Of a DNA stretch of 64,000 nt, positions 1 through 8,376 are shown piece after piece. Under the pieces are notes generated by a model. That model was not told the DNA's origin, did no database searches, and was given only the letters and a program-made list of their open reading frames with translations. Origin of the DNA: Candidatus Aenigmatarchaeota archaeon (GTDB lineage: Archaea > Aenigmatarchaeota > Aenigmatarchaeia > PWEA01). The translations under genes and the position numbers were made by a program. Where the stretch lies: the NCBI GenBank assembly GCA_046539325.1, contig JBKHHD010000003.1:843-64842 (forward strand). The letters run 5' to 3'. Numbering within the stretch: the stretch's first letter is position 1; the number at the start of each line of letters is the position of its first letter.

Positions 1-2
1 AC

Positions 3-3000
3 GTGCTCGTGAACAGCAGCTGGACAACAAATGATGAGGAAGTGGGGCCCGACGATAACTACACGGTGGGGGAGAACGCCTCGGACAGCATCCAGGGCGG
101 GATAAACCTGACCGTGGAGAACGAAAGCGTCGGTGTGTATTCCGGTCTTTACAACGAAAGCAAAGGTCTCTGGAACTTCGAAAACGTGACGGAACTGGTG
201 AGCCTGGAGCCATGGAAAGCGAGGGTCAACATAACAGGGAACAGTTCCGAAAGGATACACGTGGATAGTAACGGAACAACCGTAAAAGGTCTCAACGTGA
301 CCAGGGACTTCCAGGAAACGGAGGAACCGTGGGTAAGGGCAATGGAGATAACCGCCGGGAACGTGTCCCTGATAAAGAACAAGCTAAGTGGTGAAGGACT
401 TAACGATACAACAGAGGGTCAGACGGGGATCCTGGTAAACTCTACGTCTGAAAGAAACACGACCAATGTCCACATCTCAGACAACGAAATCACAAACTTC
501 CGCGAAGGTATACTTGTAACGGACGGACCCGATCAGGACGCAGGGATGGTGGACAACCTAACAATCGCAGAAAATATTATAGAGGGCAACGAATACGGTA
601 CTGTCCTCGCGAACAACAACGACACAGAAGACCTACAGCCAACAAACCTCAGCCTGGAGAAAAACATTCTCAGGGGATCTGGAACAGGCCTGTACATATC
701 AGGCAACGAGAACTGGGGAAATAAGAACTACACATCATTCGACACCACGGAACTAAATCTATTCGAAAACCGCTTCGAGCAGCAGGGGACACATCTAAGG
801 GACAACCCCGGCGGGTTGGACCTCAAAAGCGTCGTAGATGATAACAGCTTCGACATCGGCGCGCTGGTCCCTGACGTTGGAGGGAGCGGCTACGAACAGG
901 CTATATCTACTAGCGTGGATAAAGCAACCAGTCTGGCCGCGGAGGGAAGTGAAGTGGAAGTTCTTCCAGGAAAGTACACGGAAGATGTGGTTATAGATAC
1001 CAACAACCTTAAATTAACTTCTCTTGAAGGAATGGAAAACACGACCGTAAACGCAAGCGCTAGCAAGGAAGATAGTCCCTACGCCATCGAAATCACGGCA
1101 GAGAACGTCACCCTGGACGGTTTCACCGTGGAGAACACCCTAGGAAGCGGGGACAACGTTGTATTTGTAGACCACGGTCCTCAAGGTAACACGACTCTCC
1201 TCGACAACAGGTTCGTGGCCGTGTCCGGATACGAAAGTGAATCAGGAAAGACAGAGTTCTCGGTCGAGACCAAAAGTAGGCTGGTGGCCGAGAACAACTC
1301 CTTCGTGGAGGAAGGTACTACGGACGCTACGCTAACCCACGGTATAGGGGGAACCGATGCGGACGCCGCAGATTCCGTGATCCGGAACAACTGGTTCGGT
1401 CCAGGTCTGGACGAAGTCAACGGAAGGTCGGAAGGCGACGGAGAACAGTCTATGACCACGGGAATCCAGATGGCAGGTGCAGACAACGTCACAGTCGAAG
1501 GAAACACGTTCGTGGACGTCTGGGGAAGCGCAGTTATCTTCAACGGTGACGTGGAAAACGCGACCGTCCTGGAAAACGATATATATTACGCAAACTCCGG
1601 TGTGGTCTTCCTTTCAGACGAATCCGACAGTAACAATATAACCGGCGAACTCCTGGTCAACAGAAACAACTTCTTCGACCTGGGTGCAGGAATGGATCCC
1701 GATGGATACGGCGTGTTCGTCGGTGAAAACTGGGGCACGGAGGGGAGCGACAACGTAAGCGAGGTCGATGGAAGGGAGAACTGGTGGGGTACATACAACA
1801 AAGAGGAGATAAACGTAAGTGAGGGCGTGGTCTACTGGCCATGGTTCAATGACACGTACCAAGAAGGAGAAGCTGTAGGTGGACTACCTGCCGTGGAGAC
1901 ACTGGACGAGGAGAACGTCACATATCATTCGGTGGATCTCCCTGGAAACCTGACGTCCATGGGTGTCTTCAACAGCACAAACCTGTCCCTGGACTGGAAA
2001 AATATCGGCGGAGACTGGAACAGAGTAGAAGTCGAAACTGGAAGAGAAGGGTTGGGGACCTATAATACATCCATAGAAGATCTTGACTCCAATACAAGCT
2101 ACAGGTTCAGGGCGGTTTCGGAGGTCGAGGAGAATGGTGACAACTACACCTACAAAGCGTCTACAAGGGAGTTCAAGACGGAGTCGTACGTGAAGACACT
2201 GGATCCTGAAAGAGACTACACGGAGACAACTCTACGAGGTAACCTAACGGATATGCCCGGCGGAAACGACTGGGCAAACGTCTCCTTTATGTACACGGAC
2301 GGAAGTGAGTGGAACGAAACGAACGTAACGAACGCGACATCTGCCGGAACCTTCACCGAGACGATAGACGTCGAGGTAGACAACGACTACAAATACTACG
2401 CAGTCGTGAGGTGGGAAGACAACGAAACGGTTGAAAACACAGGAGGTAATGTAAGCTTCGATATACCCGAGAGGCCGAATATAGATACAGTAGGCTCTAG
2501 CGACGTCAACTCAGACAGCGCGACCCTTGAGGCAGAGATAACGAACCTAGGTCTTGAGGATGAGCTCGACGAGGCGTTCATCCAGTACAGGAAGGATGGA
2601 AGCGATGACTGGGATGATGCGGATGAGACAGAGGGAATAGAGAACATCAACAGCGAAGAGAAGTTTGAGGATGAGGTCTCAGGACTCGATCCCAATACAA
2701 CGTACGAGTTCAGAGCCGTACTGTGGTGGGGTGATGACGGAGAGGACGGCGGAACGGAGGAGTTTACCACAGAAAAGACAGAGGAAGAGGAGGAGAACGA
2801 TACAGAGGAAGAACAACCAAGTATGAAGTTCGGGTCCGTGGACACGCTTCCTGAAGAAAATATAACTGATAGTTCCGCAGTACTGGTCGGGGACGTCGCC
2901 GTAATGCAAGCCATCGACAGCGTGGATGCATACTTCAGATACAGAGAAGCTGACGGCGGGTCGTGGTCGGAGACGTCCTGGGAAACCATAACAGATACAG

Positions 3001-3977
3001 GCGAGTTCGAGGCCGAGGCTGATGGATTGAGCCATGATACGGCCTACGAGTTCGAGGCGGTGATAGAGTGGAACGACGGCGATGAAGAAAGCATTGGCGA
3101 CATGAAGACATTCACTACTGAGAGGCTTGGTCCTGAAATAGTAGACCGATGGCCGAAGGACGGCGAGGAAGACCTCGGCAACGAAGTAAATTTGACCATG
3201 GAATTAAAGCATCCATACAACTACGAGATGAACGTCAGATTCTTAGACGAAGATACAGGAAACATGATAGATGAGATAAAGGGTGTGGGCAATGAGGAGG
3301 TAAACACTTCATGGTTCGGATTGAGTCACAACGAAACCTACAGGTGGGAAGTAGAGGTCCATGACGGTCACTCCTACACATCCTCTGATGTCTTCGAATT
3401 TCACACCACCACACAGCAAGAGGTGAGTCAGACAGAGGCGATGTTAAAAGACAATAAAGAAAAGGTCGAGAGTATGGAAGAGGACATCGAGAAAATCAAA
3501 GAGGAGATGGAAGACGGGGAGATCAGCGAAGACTACGAAAATACAAAGAAACTCTTGGTCGAAGCAGAGGAGGCGGTGGATGAGGGAGACTACGGAACTG
3601 CCATGAGCAAGCTAGAGGAGGCGGAAACGAAGAGAGCAGATCTGGAGAAAAGGATGGCAGAGGCGGAGGAAGAGATGGGTGGATCATGGATGTTTTGGGC
3701 CGCGGTCCTGGTAATCCTCGCTGGTTTGGGAATAGCGATCGTTTACTACTACAGAAACCCCAGGCGAAGGGGACAGAAAAACGTCGGAAGTTACACATAT
3801 AAAGGAAGCAAAGGGAGTGAGAGTTATCTCAACCGCCTTAAATCCCTGTTCACCTTTAGTGAAAGCGCTAGATACAGCTACAATACAGAGAGTAGAAGTG
3901 CAGTCAGACAAAAGCTCAAAAAACTGAAGAAGAAAGTGAAGAAAGGTAACAAGCAGAAGAAGTACGACGAGTTTTAA
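3..3977 (+). CDS. Large cell-surface glycoprotein, 5' truncated at the window edge. N-terminal right-handed beta-helix-like repeats, then ~100-aa Fn3/Ig-like repeats, a coiled-coil stalk, one C-terminal TM helix and a basic cytoplasmic tail
   Basis: Open frame of 1324 aa from the window start. Dozens of N-x-S/T sequons. Repeated GN..F/TVEGNTFVDVWGSAVIF beta-helix-like units. Repeats end in aromatic-x-(F/Y)-(R/E/K)-A-V motifs (YRFRAVSEVEE, YEFRAVLWWGDD, YEFEAVIEWNDGDE). Coiled-coil EEDIEKIKEEMEDGE...DEGDYGTAMSKLEEAE, TM MFWAAVLVILAGLGIAIVYYY, then tail RNPRRRGQKN...KKLKKKVKKGNKQKKY. Confidence 0.7.
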   Translation: MLVNSSWTTNDEEVGPDDNYTVGENASDSIQGGINLTVENESVGVYSGLYNESKGLWNFENVTELVSLEPWKARVNITGNSSERIHVDSNGTTVKGLNVTRDFQETEEPWVRAMEITAGNVSLIKNKLSGEGLNDTTEGQTGILVNSTSERNTTNVHISDNEITNFREGILVTDGPDQDAGMVDNLTIAENIIEGNEYGTVLANNNDTEDLQPTNLSLEKNILRGSGTGLYISGNENWGNKNYTSFDTTELNLFENRFEQQGTHLRDNPGGLDLKSVVDDNSFDIGALVPDVGGSGYEQAISTSVDKATSLAAEGSEVEVLPGKYTEDVVIDTNNLKLTSLEGMENTTVNASASKEDSPYAIEITAENVTLDGFTVENTLGSGDNVVFVDHGPQGNTTLLDNRFVAVSGYESESGKTEFSVETKSRLVAENNSFVEEGTTDATLTHGIGGTDADAADSVIRNNWFGPGLDEVNGRSEGDGEQSMTTGIQMAGADNVTVEGNTFVDVWGSAVIFNGDVENATVLENDIYYANSGVVFLSDESDSNNITGELLVNRNNFFDLGAGMDPDGYGVFVGENWGTEGSDNVSEVDGRENWWGTYNKEEINVSEGVVYWPWFNDTYQEGEAVGGLPAVETLDEENVTYHSVDLPGNLTSMGVFNSTNLSLDWKNIGGDWNRVEVETGREGLGTYNTSIEDLDSNTSYRFRAVSEVEENGDNYTYKASTREFKTESYVKTLDPERDYTETTLRGNLTDMPGGNDWANVSFMYTDGSEWNETNVTNATSAGTFTETIDVEVDNDYKYYAVVRWEDNETVENTGGNVSFDIPERPNIDTVGSSDVNSDSATLEAEITNLGLEDELDEAFIQYRKDGSDDWDDADETEGIENINSEEKFEDEVSGLDPNTTYEFRAVLWWGDDGEDGGTEEFTTEKTEEEEENDTEEEQPSMKFGSVDTLPEENITDSSAVLVGDVAVMQAIDSVDAYFRYREADGGSWSETSWETITDTGEFEAEADGLSHDTAYEFEAVIEWNDGDEESIGDMKTFTTERLGPEIVDRWPKDGEEDLGNEVNLTMELKHPYNYEMNVRFLDEDTGNMIDEIKGVGNEEVNTSWFGLSHNETYRWEVEVHDGHSYTSSDVFEFHTTTQQEVSQTEAMLKDNKEKVESMEEDIEKIKEEMEDGEISEDYENTKKLLVEAEEAVDEGDYGTAMSKLEEAETKRADLEKRMAEAEEEMGGSWMFWAAVLVILAGLGIAIVYYYRNPRRRGQKNVGSYTYKGSKGSESYLNRLKSLFTFSESARYSYNTESRSAVRQKLKKLKKKVKKGNKQKKYDEF

Positions 3978-4010
3978 TGAAATTCTAATCGAGACCGTAC
4001 CACAAACAGC

Positions 4011-4018
4011 TTTAAATA
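4011..4018 (+). promoter_or_regulatory. TATA-box-like TTTAAATA upstream of the surface-protein paralog 2 gene
   Basis: TTTAAATA lies 63 nt upstream of the ATG at 4081. A purine-rich AGAAGGA sits just before the ATG. Confidence 0.35.
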
Positions 4019-4080
4019 AAGTTCTCGGGTAATATTTCTTAGGATTAGTCCGAAAGCGCAAATAAAACCACAGAAGGATT

Positions 4081-5481
4081 ATGATATTTCAAAGGAAGGT
4101 CCTGCTTACAACCTTGGTGTTTTTTTGTTGTATAGTTCTTCTGCCAAACGTATCTGCCGAGTCTGAAGTCGAGGTAAGCACAGGCCGATTCGTTCCCATT
4201 GAAGATGAAGCAATTATATACGGCGAGGTCAATGGCACCGAACTTGAAAACAAGTCCATAGAAGTTTTCTTCCGTTGGGGCGAAGGATTTGAAAACGTGG
4301 AAAAAGAGACTTCAAAGAAATCGCTTCCAGAAGACAAAGAGTTTTTTGAAAGTTTGGAGAACCTAAAGCCTGATACTATCTACACCTATCAAGCGGTGGC
4401 ACAGTGGAACGGGAACGAAAGCTCCGGGTCTGTCGATCACTTCAGAACAGAAGACTTTGTAGACCACAAGGTAAACGCCGAGACACGTGACGCGGAGGAA
4501 ATCTCCTACACTGAAGCAACGCTTATCGGCGAGGTCAATAAAATGGATTTTGAGGAAGGTGAGTTCTTATTTAGGTGGGGAGAAAAAGGGAATCTCAGTC
4601 AAGAGACGAAAAGAGAGGACTTCTCGGAAACGGGGACATTTGAACACGGAATAAGCGACCTCCAAGCAAACACATCTTACCAGTTCCAGGCAGCCGTAGA
4701 TATCAACGGAAGCTATGAAACAGGTGAGAATAGAACATTCACTACCCTTACCCCTTACCCAGAGATTTCAGATCTCTCGCCCGAGGACGGCGCGAGCGAC
4801 ATGGCACCTACAGTCAATCTCAGCTTCGATCTATCACTTCCCTTAAAAGGAGAGGCCGAGGTCAAATTTTACGACGGTGAAGGATCCATTATAGCCGAAA
4901 GAAGCGAAGCTGAGGAAGGTAGAGTCTCTGCAGTATGGAAAGGCCTGAACTTCACCGAGGAGTATGAATGGAATGTGGAGGTAAAGTATAGAAACAGGAC
5001 CGTCAAATCCGAGAAACTCACCTTTGAGACCATGAATCAGACAAGGATTCAAAATATAGAGAACAGAATATACGAAGTTGAAGGGACAATATCTGAGACC
5101 GATGCCCTGCTTGAGAACGTCGACGGAGATACGGATACCTCGGCACTAGAAGCCGGTCTAAGTGACCTCAGAAGCCTGCATACTGAGGCCGAAAAAGCTG
5201 CTGATGAAGGCAACTACGGTTTGGCCGAAGAAAAGATAACTAATGCTGAGGAAGTGGAGGAAGAAGTCAGAAAAGAGGCAGAAAAACTCAAGGAACAGAC
5301 CAGAGAAATAAGCAATCTATGGATTGTACTGGTAATTATTATTGTTGCCACGGTTGCAATTGTTGCGTTATTTGTTTTCACGTTCCAAAAAGGAAGTGGC
5401 AGTAGTACAGGAAGTCCTTTCGAGGACATCGAAGAGCCGGATAGTATACTTGACGAAGACAATAAGGACGAGAAAAAGTAA
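4081..5481 (+). CDS. Surface protein paralog 2. Signal peptide, Fn3-like repeats, coiled-coil stalk, TM anchor, acidic tail
   Basis: N-terminal MIFQRKVLLTTLVFFCCIVLLPNVSAESE is signal-peptide-like. Repeats end in YTYQAVAQWNGNE and YQFQAAVDINGSYE. Coiled-coil carries DEGNYGLAEEKITNAEE. TM LWIVLVIIIVATVAIVALFVF. Confidence 0.7.
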   Translation: MIFQRKVLLTTLVFFCCIVLLPNVSAESEVEVSTGRFVPIEDEAIIYGEVNGTELENKSIEVFFRWGEGFENVEKETSKKSLPEDKEFFESLENLKPDTIYTYQAVAQWNGNESSGSVDHFRTEDFVDHKVNAETRDAEEISYTEATLIGEVNKMDFEEGEFLFRWGEKGNLSQETKREDFSETGTFEHGISDLQANTSYQFQAAVDINGSYETGENRTFTTLTPYPEISDLSPEDGASDMAPTVNLSFDLSLPLKGEAEVKFYDGEGSIIAERSEAEEGRVSAVWKGLNFTEEYEWNVEVKYRNRTVKSEKLTFETMNQTRIQNIENRIYEVEGTISETDALLENVDGDTDTSALEAGLSDLRSLHTEAEKAADEGNYGLAEEKITNAEEVEEEVRKEAEKLKEQTREISNLWIVLVIIIVATVAIVALFVFTFQKGSGSSTGSPFEDIEEPDSILDEDNKDEKK

Positions 5482-5547
5482 GAGACATCTGACCAAAGCT
5501 TAAATATTCACGGAAAATAAAGATAAGCAGTGGGTAGAGGATTCAAC

Positions 5548-8031
5548 ATGAAACGTAGTAAAAGCACTGTCGTGGTTGCAGCTACTGTATTCTTGGCCTT
5601 TCTTTTTCTTTCAGGATTTTCTGTTGCTGATACAACAGTTTATACAGAAGATGTAGAAAACGTCACGTATAATTCATCCATCTTTGTTGGTTCTTTGAGC
5701 CATGATGAAGATGAGGTAAACGTTTCCTTTCAATATAGTGATAACCCTGACAACGAAGATGAATGGGAGTATGAAACGGAATCCAAGACTTTGAGCGAGT
5801 CTACGGATAGATTCACTATTGGGGCCGAAGGTCTTTCAGTCAATACAACCTATGCATACAGGGCAATAGCTGAAGGTGAGAGTACTAGTTACGGTGAAAT
5901 TCAAGAGTTCACTACCTACGCAGAACCTACAGTCAAAGCGACGGAAGCCACCGAAATCACCCATGACAGTGCCGTTCTTCAGGGTAATCTAGTCGAAATA
6001 GGCATGGAAGAAGAAGTAGATCTATATTTCGCCTGGCAAGATGAGTTCCAGGACGACGAATGGAACACTACGGATAATTTCACCCTTCAGGAAGAAGGGG
6101 TCTTCACGAAGGAAATAGAAAATCTAGGAAGCGACAGGGAACATAATTTCAAGGCAGTGATGAATTGGGGAGAAGAAAACCATACGGTAGAAAACACAGG
6201 AGAAACCTTCCAAACAAAAACTCCAGTATATGTCGAGGCACGAGAGGTGGAGGAAGTAACAACCAACTCAGCTCTCCTCAAGGCTGAGGTTCTTGGTGAA
6301 GAAGACAAAGTACAAGAGGAAGAGATCAATGCTTCCTTCTTCGTCAAAAACGATGGAATGGAAAAGATAAAGGAAATTGAAGTCGGGGATACCGGAACTA
6401 TAGAAGCAGAGGCCAATAACCTTCAATCAGGTCACAGCTATATCTCTCGTATAGAAATTTCAGACTATGATTCATCCGATGAAATCGATTTTCTCACAGC
6501 TCCGAACGTGAGCATGAAAAATCTGGACGTGGATTCCGAAGAGGTATACGTGGACGAGGAGTTCGAGGCAAGTGTAGATGTGGAGAATCTAGGAGACGTG
6601 GAATACGAATACGAGGTCGTTTTCTCTGTGGATGGTGACGAGGAGAAAACGGTAGATGCAAATGTTTCAGGTGGGAACACCGAAAAAGTCACAGCCGGTC
6701 TTTCGGTTGGTTCCTCAGGTACCTATGACGTGGAAGCAGAAGTACTTGGTAAAACAAATGAAACAGGAATAGAGGTCTTTAACAAGCCGAATGTAGAAAC
6801 AAAAACCCCTGAAGAAGTTGGAGAAGACTACGCAATTCTCGAAGGTGAAGTAACTGAGATGGGTTTAGAGGACGATGTCAAGGTTTTCTTCCGTTTCGGC
6901 GATGAAGACGAAGACGAAGAATACTGGAGCGAGAGCGAGAAACAGGATATTGATGGAGAAGAGGGATTTGAACAGGAAGTTCAACTAAACGAAGAAATCG
7001 GATACGGGTACAAGGCTGTAGTCCAATGGAATGACGGTGACGACGAAAATACTGGTCAAACTCTCACCATGACACCCGATGCATGCGAATATAACAACTG
7101 GGAAAATGAGACATGTGGCGGATGGGAATGTGACGAAGATGAAGTATATCAGGTCAAAGAGGTCACCGATGGTAGCCCCAGCTACTGTGAAGATATCAAA
7201 GAAAGATGTTTTGAATCAGAGAACTATTGTGGTGTGCCAGATGTAAATATTACCCCCGAAAAGGAAATAGTAAATGTTAGTGGAGGTGAACATGAAAAGA
7301 ACAACGTGACGGTTTGGAATATAGGTACCGAGGATCTTAAAGACGTTGAAATGGAAATAGAAGGAAATATACCCGATAACTGGTTCGAAGTCACTGTATC
7401 TAGTTTGGATATAGAGCAAAAGGATGAGAAGGATTTCCAGGTAAACTTCACACCTAATTCTGGAGCACCTGTTGGTAAATATACGATAAATTACTCCGTG
7501 GACTATGGCTCAACAGAAAGGAAGGAAGGCAAGCTGTGGGTACATCCTGATGAAGAAGGGGAGAAAAAGATAAACACTAGGCACAAAAACCTCACGCAGG
7601 ACATTGAAACTATCGAAGGAACAATAAAAGATCTTTCAGAAAAAACCAATGTCAGTCACCTCGAAGAAGATCTCTCAAGACTCAAAGAGCTAACGGCTGA
7701 GGGCGATGAAGCAATAGAAGAAGGTAACTCCATGGCAGCAAAGGAAAAAATAGAGGAGTCGGAATTCCTACTGTCGGAGATAAAGGATAAAATCCAAACA
7801 ACGGAGAAAGAACTGTCCTTTCCCTGGGCATGGATAGGTGTCGGCATAGTTGTAATTATCGTAATCAGTGTTCTCATTTACTTGCTTCTTCCGCCTATTG
7901 AGGAGTACAAAAGATCAGGTTATCAAAGTCCTAGTGATGAGACAGTCCAGGACAAAATAAAGGAAAAATTCAAGGAACTCAAGGAAAGGATTTTCGGCGA
8001 GGAAGAAGAAGGATACACCTATCAGGACTGA
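5548..8031 (+). CDS. Surface protein paralog 3. Signal peptide, Fn3-like repeats, Cys-rich module, CARDB/DUF11-like domain, coiled-coil stalk, TM anchor
   Basis: The ORF track begins at a GTG at 5530. The ATG at 5548 (MKRSKSTVVVAATVFLAFLFLSGFSVA) has GAGG 9 nt upstream and yields a clean signal peptide. Repeats end in YAYRAIAEGES, HNFKAVMNWGEEN and YGYKAVVQWNDGDDE. Cys-rich CEYNNWENETCGGWECDEDE...YCEDIKERCFESENYCG. Coiled-coil carries EEGNSMAAKEKIEESE. TM WAWIGVGIVVIIVISVLIYLLL. Confidence 0.7.
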   Translation: MKRSKSTVVVAATVFLAFLFLSGFSVADTTVYTEDVENVTYNSSIFVGSLSHDEDEVNVSFQYSDNPDNEDEWEYETESKTLSESTDRFTIGAEGLSVNTTYAYRAIAEGESTSYGEIQEFTTYAEPTVKATEATEITHDSAVLQGNLVEIGMEEEVDLYFAWQDEFQDDEWNTTDNFTLQEEGVFTKEIENLGSDREHNFKAVMNWGEENHTVENTGETFQTKTPVYVEAREVEEVTTNSALLKAEVLGEEDKVQEEEINASFFVKNDGMEKIKEIEVGDTGTIEAEANNLQSGHSYISRIEISDYDSSDEIDFLTAPNVSMKNLDVDSEEVYVDEEFEASVDVENLGDVEYEYEVVFSVDGDEEKTVDANVSGGNTEKVTAGLSVGSSGTYDVEAEVLGKTNETGIEVFNKPNVETKTPEEVGEDYAILEGEVTEMGLEDDVKVFFRFGDEDEDEEYWSESEKQDIDGEEGFEQEVQLNEEIGYGYKAVVQWNDGDDENTGQTLTMTPDACEYNNWENETCGGWECDEDEVYQVKEVTDGSPSYCEDIKERCFESENYCGVPDVNITPEKEIVNVSGGEHEKNNVTVWNIGTEDLKDVEMEIEGNIPDNWFEVTVSSLDIEQKDEKDFQVNFTPNSGAPVGKYTINYSVDYGSTERKEGKLWVHPDEEGEKKINTRHKNLTQDIETIEGTIKDLSEKTNVSHLEEDLSRLKELTAEGDEAIEEGNSMAAKEKIEESEFLLSEIKDKIQTTEKELSFPWAWIGVGIVVIIVISVLIYLLLPPIEEYKRSGYQSPSDETVQDKIKEKFKELKERIFGEEEEGYTYQD

Positions 8032-8376
8032 CTATTTTATATCACACGAAAATCTGCTTTCTAGAATAGAAGCCCTCTTCGCTGCCTGGCATATTTCACA
8101 GAATCTCTCGTCGTATTGCTCCATATCTATTCTTTGTTTCGCGACGTCCTCTACGAGACCATCAACTTTCCTCGAAACATCCTCCGATTTCTCTATCTTC
8201 TTTACCTGTCTTCCTCTCAGTTCGTTCTGGTACTGTGAGACAGCGGGCTGTGTCATATCCAAACGTCTTGCAGTCTCCCTCTGAGTAAGACCGTGTTCTT
8301 CGACTAGATCCCTCGCAAGAATAGCTCTGACAGCAGGAAGGAGATCGTTGACAAAAACCTCACATACGAGTTTCAT
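8032..8376 (-). CDS. Small HTH transcription regulator with a C-terminal Cys cluster
   Basis: HTH-like GLTQRETARRLDMTQPAVSQY, with C-terminal CEICQ...C. Its stop directly abuts the stop of the convergent surface-protein gene. Confidence 0.5.
   Translation of the reverse strand: MKLVCEVFVNDLLPAVRAILARDLVEEHGLTQRETARRLDMTQPAVSQYQNELRGRQVKKIEKSEDVSRKVDGLVEDVAKQRIDMEQYDERFCEICQAAKRASILESRFSCDIK

Follow-up and report, generated by a model that had tools for sequence, protein, structure and literature searches.

The first part (positions 3-8031) of a 64,000-nucleotide stretch of archaeal DNA, hereafter the window, is filled by three plus-strand open reading frames (ORFs), A, B and C. To judge from their sequences, they encode fast-evolving, lineage-specific, probably N-glycosylated type-I membrane proteins of a family that is unnamed at the level of whole proteins. 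Each ectodomain would be a rod of fibronectin-type-III (FnIII) beta-sandwiches on a compact three-helix pedestal that is continuous with a transmembrane (TM) helix. The three proteins probably make up much of the exposed cell surface. Our preferred reading, with a probability of about even, is that these surface glycoproteins serve contact or adhesion and that the A-type members also act in proteolysis. The minus-strand ORFs beneath A, B and C are short shadows, and the coordinates of all features are collected in Table 1.

Architecture of the three proteins

The original prediction of three same-strand paralogues with beta-sandwich-like repeats of about 100 aa was borne out on both counts. 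Pairwise BLASTP gave E-values of 4e-33 for A and B (over 424 aa), 7.6e-13 for A and C and 4.9e-7 for B and C, and individual ~95-aa repeats match one another across the proteins at ~1e-9. An iterated repeat hidden Markov model (HMM), whose E-values are self-trained and leave the BLAST values as the independent test of paralogy, finds 4 + 1 units in A, 2 + 1 in B (the added unit being the membrane-proximal variant in A) and four canonical units in C. No further copies of the family were found in the rest of the window. Most units in the repeat alignment also carry the motif noted beforehand, an aromatic-x-F/Y-x-A-V followed by W and an acidic/glycine patch, which we take to be the tyrosine corner and F strand of the FnIII fold followed by the F-G loop.

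The repeat units are FnIII domains of the ordinary kind. In A, the Pfam family Pur_ac_phosph_N (PF16656) is matched at 3e-8 (34.5 bits against a cutoff of 30) and fn3 falls just under its threshold (9e-5, 23.0 bits against 25); the FnIII-type Pfam matches of B and C are all sub-threshold. The AlphaFold2 (AF2) model of B aligned by Foldseek with fibronectin FN10-12, a tandem FnIII array, at an E-value of 7.9e-13. The earlier remark that no named family could be matched thus stands for the whole proteins in Pfam and NCBIfam and fails for the repeats, the named families being Pur_ac_phosph_N, fn3 and PhoD_N. Searches of PDB sequences with an A/B/C profile and a stalk profile gave weak FnIII or generic helical matches at most.

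The minimal member of the family is B, with a signal peptide, three FnIII domains, the three-helix module, a TM helix and a 30-aa tail. Its AF2 model has a mean pLDDT of 81, with sandwiches at residues 31-122, 132-221 and 228-317; the counterpart in B of the membrane-proximal domain of A is a beta-sandwich modelled at a pLDDT of ~95. Sec-type signal peptides are predicted for B and C, in which a basic n-region and a hydrophobic core lead to the cleavage-type ends VSA before E (B) and SVA before D (C). A signal peptide had been proposed for all three proteins, and this holds for B and C by hydropathy and cleavage-type ends; in A it lies outside view, the gene being cut at the edge of both window and contig. 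Hydropathy further places one strongly hydrophobic segment at the C-terminus of each protein, in line with the single TM helix and cytoplasmic tail that had been proposed. The tails, 30-78 aa in the family and 46 aa in C, are placed in the cytoplasm because of the positive-inside rule, the tail of A having a net charge of +17 against -199 for its ectodomain (the ectodomains range from -54 to -199).

One part of the original prediction that needs correcting is the coiled-coil stalk. In the AF2 model of B the helices fold back as a three-helix bundle, with a pLDDT of 82-97 over residues 321-400, and the third helix runs directly into the TM helix; the model of C, though weaker, agrees. Among 14 aligned members, most keep a G-(D/N)-Y-x-x-A turn that links helices 2 and 3, its alanine nearly invariant, and insertions and deletions fall in the loop between helices 1 and 2, a pattern consistent with a fold-back bundle. 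The helical juxtamembrane part is therefore predicted to form a bundle of three helices, the last of which runs on as the TM helix. Nothing above generic helical noise was found for this module in Pfam or PDB, and the Pfam families returned for the 14 stalk segments (EzrA, DUF4363, Spectrin, DUF5667) were scattered helical noise from which no assignment was made. By these comparisons, all domains of the three proteins belong to known families except the membrane-proximal module, which is without a Pfam or PDB counterpart.

The larger proteins add other domains to this plan. The head of A is a beta-helix, for which a sequence search of PDB gave no match, and upstream of the part of A within the window the deposited protein continues with a CARDB domain and CarboxypepD_reg-type stretches that precede the beta-helix. 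There are no cysteines in A and two in B, and C carries a module with six invariant cysteines for which no Pfam match was found. The AF2 model of C, with a pLDDT below 50 over its CARDB-like domain, the cysteine-rich module and the last sandwich, is too weak in these parts to be interpreted.

The proteins are rich in N-x-S/T sequons: 50 in A against a shuffled expectation of 18 (z 8.6), 12 in B against 3.7 (z 4.9) and 19 in C against 6.8 (z 5.2), an excess of 2.7-3.3 times. A single one of the other 56 ORFs in the window exceeds z 3 (at 3.3), and enrichment recurs in nine of ten relatives checked (z 2.4-10.5), the exception being a 331-aa A-like fragment with zero sequons. Five or six of the 12 repeat units read N-T/E-S/T-Y in the E-F loop just before the corner tyrosine, which places a recurrent sequon at one structural position of these very acidic repeats. 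Three sequon columns are invariant among the C-like proteins, and the sequon N520-x-T522 of the cysteine-rich module is kept in all six C-like rows. There are none in the tails of A, B and C. This strong, specific and widely shared excess fits N-glycosylated, exposed proteins, as had been suggested for the first, sequon-dense protein, and strong selection for sequons confined to the outer side is predicted.

Divergence of the family and rival roles

Word-indexed searches, whether run with B, A or a 7-sequence profile, brought up just the proteins' own records and one unrelated FnIII protein; the relatives were recovered by an exhaustive HMMER profile search. This yielded 8787 proteins at E <= 1e-3, 316 of them below 1e-30, most being giant multi-repeat proteins that share the FnIII repeat type alone; one bears the IMG name 'phosphodiesterase/alkaline phosphatase D-like'. 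Among the best 150 of the 8787, the combination of Ig-like domain, stalk and TM helix occurs in about ten clusters, of proteins from this lineage; proteins with the stalk-TM module alone would rank below these 150. Relatives with the stalk module are of three types, B-like (416-474 aa), C-like (825-838 aa) and A-like.

The related loci represent six populations, namely the window, L001, L002 (the same as L005), L003 (the same as L006), L010 (nearly the same as L011) and L012. Those of L001-L003 come from GTDB genomes titled Aenigmatarchaeota, one of which is PWEA01; the window locus shares its gene order with PWEA01000011, the genes on its flanks being 75-82% identical. The source lineage of the window is thus, on gene order and identity, probably Haloaenigmatarchaeaceae (Aenigmatarchaeota), halophilic DPANN archaea. 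PWEA01 belongs to this family, which has been described as halophilic and probably symbiotic, with a reduced genome of ~1.5 Mb, and recently recognised as a DPANN lineage that adapted to brine independently.

The family diverges much faster than its surroundings. Most flanking genes are 72-85% identical to those of the window (40-77% in L001), against 39-44% for the C-terminal part of A, 27-34% for B and 41-45% for C. An exception is L001, in which C (L001 1880-4372 compared with window 5548-8031) is 67% identical while the C-terminal part of A is at 39%; exchange, or the existence of allele classes, may thus have uncoupled C from the phylogeny of the genomes.

The heads of A-like proteins differ between populations, with a beta-helix in the window, GLUG repeats in L003 and L010 (and an InlB-B-repeat as well in L003) and, in L012, a single CARDB domain directly on one FnIII domain; in L002 a short stretch before the last FnIII domain resembles an InlB-B repeat by eye. 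Two full-length relatives, P0023 (L008 668-5935) and P0030 (L009 3010-8409), begin with a signal peptide followed by Peptidase_S8 (2e-36 and 7e-45), which P0023 combines with Inhibitor_I9. Their ectodomains have, between them, InlB-B-repeat, GLUG and CARDB domains ahead of the FnIII repeats, and their C-terminal part is the FnIII, Ig-like, stalk and TM module of the family. Subtilase sequence motifs accompany this type of FnIII repeat in further matches from the searched library. P0002, the deposited form of A, has as its first domain a CARDB domain 38% identical to the one that directly follows S8 in P0023, a likeness that makes it plausible that the part of A now missing contains an S8 domain. 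A partial gene just upstream of P0023 (L008 3-593) matches the stalk-TM part of A (28% over 143 aa, E 6e-8), so that tandem family members occur at a second locus too.

These relatives, one of them with an I9 propeptide, also bear on another explanation, in which hydrolytic heads (S8, or a glycan-active beta-helix) are tethered to the cell to supply an auxotroph with peptides and sugars, the FnIII rods being spacers and no partner cell being involved. Such nutritional exo-enzymes would suit a lineage whose published description has it lacking most biosynthetic pathways, and they would account for the subtilase motifs found with the same repeat type and for the Beta_helix match on the head of A. 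B and C, however, have no recognisable catalytic domain, and the swapping of heads, the 27-45% identity beside much better conserved flanks and the conserved tail exceed what a tethered enzyme needs. We consider this explanation decidedly unlikely.

The missing end of A deserves comment. In the window A is 100% identical to P0002 (1605 aa), itself deposited as 'partial' at the end of a 94-kb contig, so that A has at least 1605 aa and its N-terminus is absent even there. The contig ends inside an A-like gene in every assembly recovered (nine of nine contigs, six populations), at window 1-3, L001 1-1209, L002 1-1420, L003 1-4009, L006 1-1455, L010 1-2433, L011 3-218 and L012 2-1519, and the break points differ between assemblies of one population (L003 and L006, L010 and L011). 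No DNA-level repeats that could explain assembly breaks were found in window 1-8100. The breaks in the absence of such repeats suggest hypervariation between strains, or else a second, near-identical copy of the head elsewhere in the genome. A cluster of single-nucleotide differences in the last 216 nt of A between L010 and L011 was dropped as an indication of microdiversity, as it adjoins a contig end.

C is the most length-conserved member of the cluster, being 825-842 aa long, constant in domain order and present in all six populations. B is full-length in four of the six, one of these (P0064) having no helical module. In L001 a 177-aa remnant (L001 1262-1795) consists of the signal peptide, one helix with D-N-Y-x-x-A, the TM helix and a short basic tail, all beta-sandwiches being gone, and in L002 B is absent. 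The idea of an expanding family finds no support in this record, the cluster having two to three members across the six populations, with B shrunken or lost in two.

The constancy of C is what would be expected if C and/or B formed a structural array of the envelope, glycosylated and anchored in the membrane, that sets a pseudo-periplasm, in the manner of SlaB or the halobacterial S-layer glycoprotein, with A inserted in it as an accessory. C is never lost, B mirrors the published description of SlaB in size, sandwiches, helix, TM helix and sequons, and rapid divergence is typical of S-layer proteins too. Against such a coat, neither A, B nor C has a Pfam or NCBIfam S-layer model at E <= 1, the helices are modelled as a fold-back bundle ~27 residues tall rather than as a long trimerising helix, and B is dispensable, to judge from L001, L002 and P0064. 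A further point against it is a partial protein encoded two to three genes upstream of the S8-headed P0030 (L009 3-1082), which matches the canonical S_layer_C (PF05124) at 1.7e-14. It suggests that the lineage may have a separate S-layer protein, the sample being shared with two of the loci and origin from the same organism being unproven; no homologue was found in the window. On balance a coat seems somewhat unlikely, and contact or adhesion remains the preferred role. Both roles had been suggested beforehand, as attachment and as an S-layer-like coat, and both are plausible.

The tails raise the question of whether the proteins relay surface contact inward, as type-I receptors with an FnIII ectodomain, one TM helix and conserved cytoplasmic tyrosine motifs. 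The aligned A-, B- and C-like relatives have in common a G-Y-x-Y-(K/N) motif close to the TM helix, window B being without it. The tail of A ends in KQKKYDEF, kept as KQKKY(D/S)EF in most A-like proteins, and this end, like the GEE...Y-x-Y end of C, persists despite ectodomain identities of ~40%. The tail of A is also strongly basic (pI 10.5) within an acidic proteome, the proteins of the window having isoelectric points (pI) of 4.5-6.6. The positive-inside rule alone explains a basic tail, however, and no kinase, phosphatase or signalling domain is present in the tails or the conserved neighbours, the convergent helix-turn-helix (HTH) gene being the only regulator nearby. With the tyrosine motif missing from window B as well, a receptor function is very improbable.

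A proposed contact surface and its locus

If the preferred role in contact or adhesion is correct, the shared membrane-proximal module would be a common pedestal that holds different ectodomains at graded heights, with estimates of ~15 nm (B), ~30 nm (C) and over 45 nm (A) if each sandwich contributes ~3.5-4 nm. The distal parts would carry the function, the head of A being swappable (beta-helix, CARDB and CarboxypepD_reg here, GLUG and InlB-B-repeat elsewhere). Together the three proteins would mediate contact with other cells or polymers, that is adhesion, while the A-type proteins would probably add local proteolysis or glycan binding through their heads. The family would be under diversifying pressure, and its dense N-glycans would stabilise and shield the proteins in brine. 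In this way it may provide a rapidly evolving surface for contact in an organism that probably lives on other cells.

A number of considerations weigh against this reading. The assignment of function draws entirely on domain types and evolutionary pattern, and FnIII, CARDB and beta-helix domains occur also in S-layer proteins, in hydrolases and as spacers. With the N-terminus of A missing, a catalytic domain in the A protein of the window is unproven, and P0023 and P0030, which lie at other loci, are paralogues and not positional orthologues. No AglB/STT3 was found among the ten window ORFs scanned against Pfam. The AF2 models were built from shallow alignments of 5-7 sequences (seven for B). 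A literature search for FnIII or subtilase surface proteins of DPANN archaea found nothing specific.

A bolder version can be put forward, in which the cluster is the host-contact apparatus of Haloaenigmatarchaeaceae, a second DPANN lineage that became halophilic independently. Here A-type proteins, with a subtilase and swappable adhesive heads on the FnIII rod, would bind the host envelope and breach it locally, the conserved, strongly basic tyrosine tails would reach a cytoplasmic partner, the whole would be a compact, convergent counterpart of the SPEARE proteins, and the breaks in A would reflect strain-level hypervariation of host-specificity determinants. We think this version unlikely. 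More generally, FnIII-repeat, TM-anchored archaeal surface glycoproteins are a routine class, and the cluster is not a new system and leaves general understanding unchanged. Its conserved position, fast divergence, head variation and sequon density nevertheless put it first among the candidates for proteins of the envelope or of host contact in this lineage, and it offers concrete targets for finding the host of Haloaenigmatarchaeaceae.

The gene order A, B (where present), C, HTH gene and GDH, the last two on the minus strand, is kept in five of the six populations, and cysteine desulfurase and IscU follow GDH wherever the contig of these populations extends far enough. In L001, desulfurase and IscU come directly after the HTH gene and a match to GDH lies ~6 kb further on. 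The HTH_3 gene beside C keeps its position in all six populations at 61-84% identity, and a regulatory tie between it and the cluster is possible. TATA-box-like elements before B and C, read by eye, hint at a separate promoter for each gene. The GC content at third codon positions is 0.58-0.62 in A, 0.47 in B and 0.41 in C, and 0.46-0.55 in eight housekeeping genes of the window.

In the databases, B is identical to ACLFTY_01525, on the same 94-kb contig as P0002, from a metagenome-assembled genome of 'Candidatus Aenigmatarchaeota archaeon'. The NCBI protein (P0001) starts 12 aa further in, which truncates the signal peptide, and both deposited proteins, A and B, are labelled 'hypothetical protein'; exact-product look-ups of P0001 and C found no record. 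The remainder of the window is ordinary archaeal housekeeping, including one class I and one class II aminoacyl-tRNA synthetase, aRF1, FttA, RtcB, PPDK and two tRNAs. An 892-aa ORF at window 44562-47240 matches the uncharacterised membrane-protein family UPF0182 over its full length (E 5e-283) and has no relation to A, B or C.

Table 1. Features of the A-B-C cluster and its immediate surroundings (window coordinates; aa numbers refer to the respective protein)
Feature	Position	Strand	Basis and remarks
Gene A, 3' 1324 codons, predicted large type-I membrane glycoprotein	3..3977	+	ORF list; open at window start
A head, right-handed parallel beta-helix repeats, apparently two blocks	3..1892	+	Pfam Beta_helix 2.5e-8, 34.2 bits (cutoff 25.9); TIGR03805 weak
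A, four canonical FnIII-like repeats, window aa 629-727, 728-822, 825-924, 944-1040	1887..3122	+	Repeat HMM, Pfam, BLASTP
A, membrane-proximal FnIII/Ig-like domain, P-x-I-x-D-x-W-P-x-D-G ... E-T-Y-x-W	3135..3410	+	Alignments; kept in A-like and B-like proteins
A, helical juxtamembrane module with conserved turn E-A-x-x-A-x-x-x-G-D-Y-x-x-A-x-x-K	3411..3683	+	Alignments; three-helix bundle predicted by homology with B and C
A, TM helix	3687..3755	+	Kyte-Doolittle 19-aa window maximum 2.46
A, predicted cytoplasmic tail, 73 aa, net charge +17, pI 10.5, contains G-S-Y-T-Y-K, ends KQKKYDEF	3756..3974	+	Charge computation; kept in A-like tails elsewhere
TATA-box-like TTTAAATAA, candidate B promoter	4011..4019	+	Read by eye; 62 nt 5' of B start codon
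Gene B, 466 aa, minimal family member	4081..5481	+	ORF list, hydropathy, AF2, Foldseek
B, three FnIII domains, aa 28-124, 131-223, 228-318	4162..5034	+	Repeat HMM limits
B, predicted three-helix module, helices 320-346, 354-375, 379-435; TM aa 413-436 within last helix	5038..5388	+	AF2
TATA-box-like TTAAATAT, candidate C promoter	5500..5507	+	Read by eye; 41 nt 5' of C start codon
Gene C, 827 aa from ATG; 833 aa from GTG 5530	5548..8031	+	ORF list, alignments
C, FnIII-like repeats 1-3, aa 29-311	5632..6480	+	Repeat HMM; AF2 pLDDT ~80
C, CARDB-like beta-sandwich, aa ~318-405, invariant D-x-E-E-V-Y-V-D-E	6499..6762	+	Alignments; weak Pfam; AF2 pLDDT ~50
C, FnIII-like repeat 4, aa 414-511	6787..7080	+	Repeat HMM, AF2
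C, Cys-rich module, aa 513-561, six invariant Cys, sequon in W-E-N-x-T-C-G-G-W	7084..7230	+	Alignments; AF2 pLDDT <50
C, NPCBM_assoc/CARDB-like beta-sandwich, aa 566-665	7243..7542	+	Excised segment: NPCBM_assoc 1.7e-5, 25.3 bits (cutoff 24.4); CARDB 7e-4
C, predicted three-helix module aa 669-757 and TM helix aa 759-781	7552..7890	+	AF2 helices 669-697, 703-724, 728-757, 760-780; hydropathy
C, predicted cytoplasmic tail, L-L-P-P-x-E-x-Y at inner TM end, terminal G-E-E-x-x-x-Y-x-Y	7891..8028	+	Alignment of C-like proteins
HTH_3 protein, 114 aa, C-terminal C-x-x-C	8032-8376	-	Convergent to C, stop codons abut

Comparison with known systems

Relative to the FnIII superfamily at large, the repeats have the expected seven-strand beta-sandwich and the tyrosine-corner motif L-x-P-x-T-x-Y-x-F-x-A-V, the nearest solved structure being the RsgI4 sensor domain (7cg8). 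They differ in being very acidic, in that about half carry the E-F-loop sequon N-T-[ST]-Y, and in being joined to a specific module of three helices, TM helix and tail.

The original prediction had named halocyanin and the S-layer glycoprotein as families to which the proteins might turn out to belong, and no such model appears among their Pfam and NCBIfam matches at E <= 1. At that threshold there was no copper-protein match that would indicate a halocyanin or cupredoxin, and no match to S_layer_N or S_layer_C (PF05123/PF05124), in A, B or C. The halobacterial S-layer glycoprotein and PGF-CTERM were likewise set aside, as there was no NCBIfam or Pfam model at E <= 1 and no PGF motif, and the tails after the TM helix are long.

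The csg glycoprotein of Haloferax volcanii is a C-terminally anchored chain of Ig-like domains, ~830 aa long, with N-glycans and a very acidic composition. C resembles it in its 827 aa and about seven beta-sandwiches, and differs in having a helical module, a true TM helix, a 46-aa tail and a six-cysteine module, and in having no PGF-CTERM signal.

Among two-component S-layers, the SlaB anchor of the Sulfolobales has 475 aa and 14 sequons and is made up of a signal peptide, three beta-sandwiches, a helix of 132 aa and a TM helix (448-470). By description B is much like it, its 466 aa carrying 12 sequons and likewise comprising a signal peptide, three beta-sandwiches and a helical segment that leads to a C-terminal TM helix. 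Unlike the SlaB helix, which forms a trimeric coiled coil, the helices of B are predicted, from monomer models and the G-D/N-Y turn, to form a fold-back bundle, and unlike SlaB, B is lost in some populations. No candidate for a SlaA-like partner was found in the conserved neighbourhood of the cluster.

The SPEARE proteins of Nanohaloarchaeota, of 3,300-8,500 aa, combine a serine protease and laminin-G domains with a TM helix near the C-terminus, and are most conserved in a cytoplasmic region that corresponds to a type III restriction enzyme. A Pfam scan found no laminin-G domain in A, B, C and the relatives scanned. Membership in this group was rejected, since with tails of 30-78 aa and no Pfam domain in the C-terminal segments of A and C there is no restriction-enzyme region. 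The likeness to P0023 and P0030 lies in large, mostly extracytoplasmic proteins of halophilic DPANN archaea that combine a serine protease and adhesion-type domains with a C-terminal TM helix. In its presumed function the family belongs beside the TM-anchored surface glycoproteins of archaea and the giant adhesins or proteases of DPANN archaea, SPEARE among them.

A last comparison is with tetrabrachion and the STABLE protease of Staphylothermus marinus, in which a separate protease polypeptide sits on a very long four-helix stalk. Both systems would present a subtilisin-type protease at the archaeal surface on a membrane-anchored helical stalk; in the present family the protease, where present, is fused to the FnIII rod and the helical part is short.

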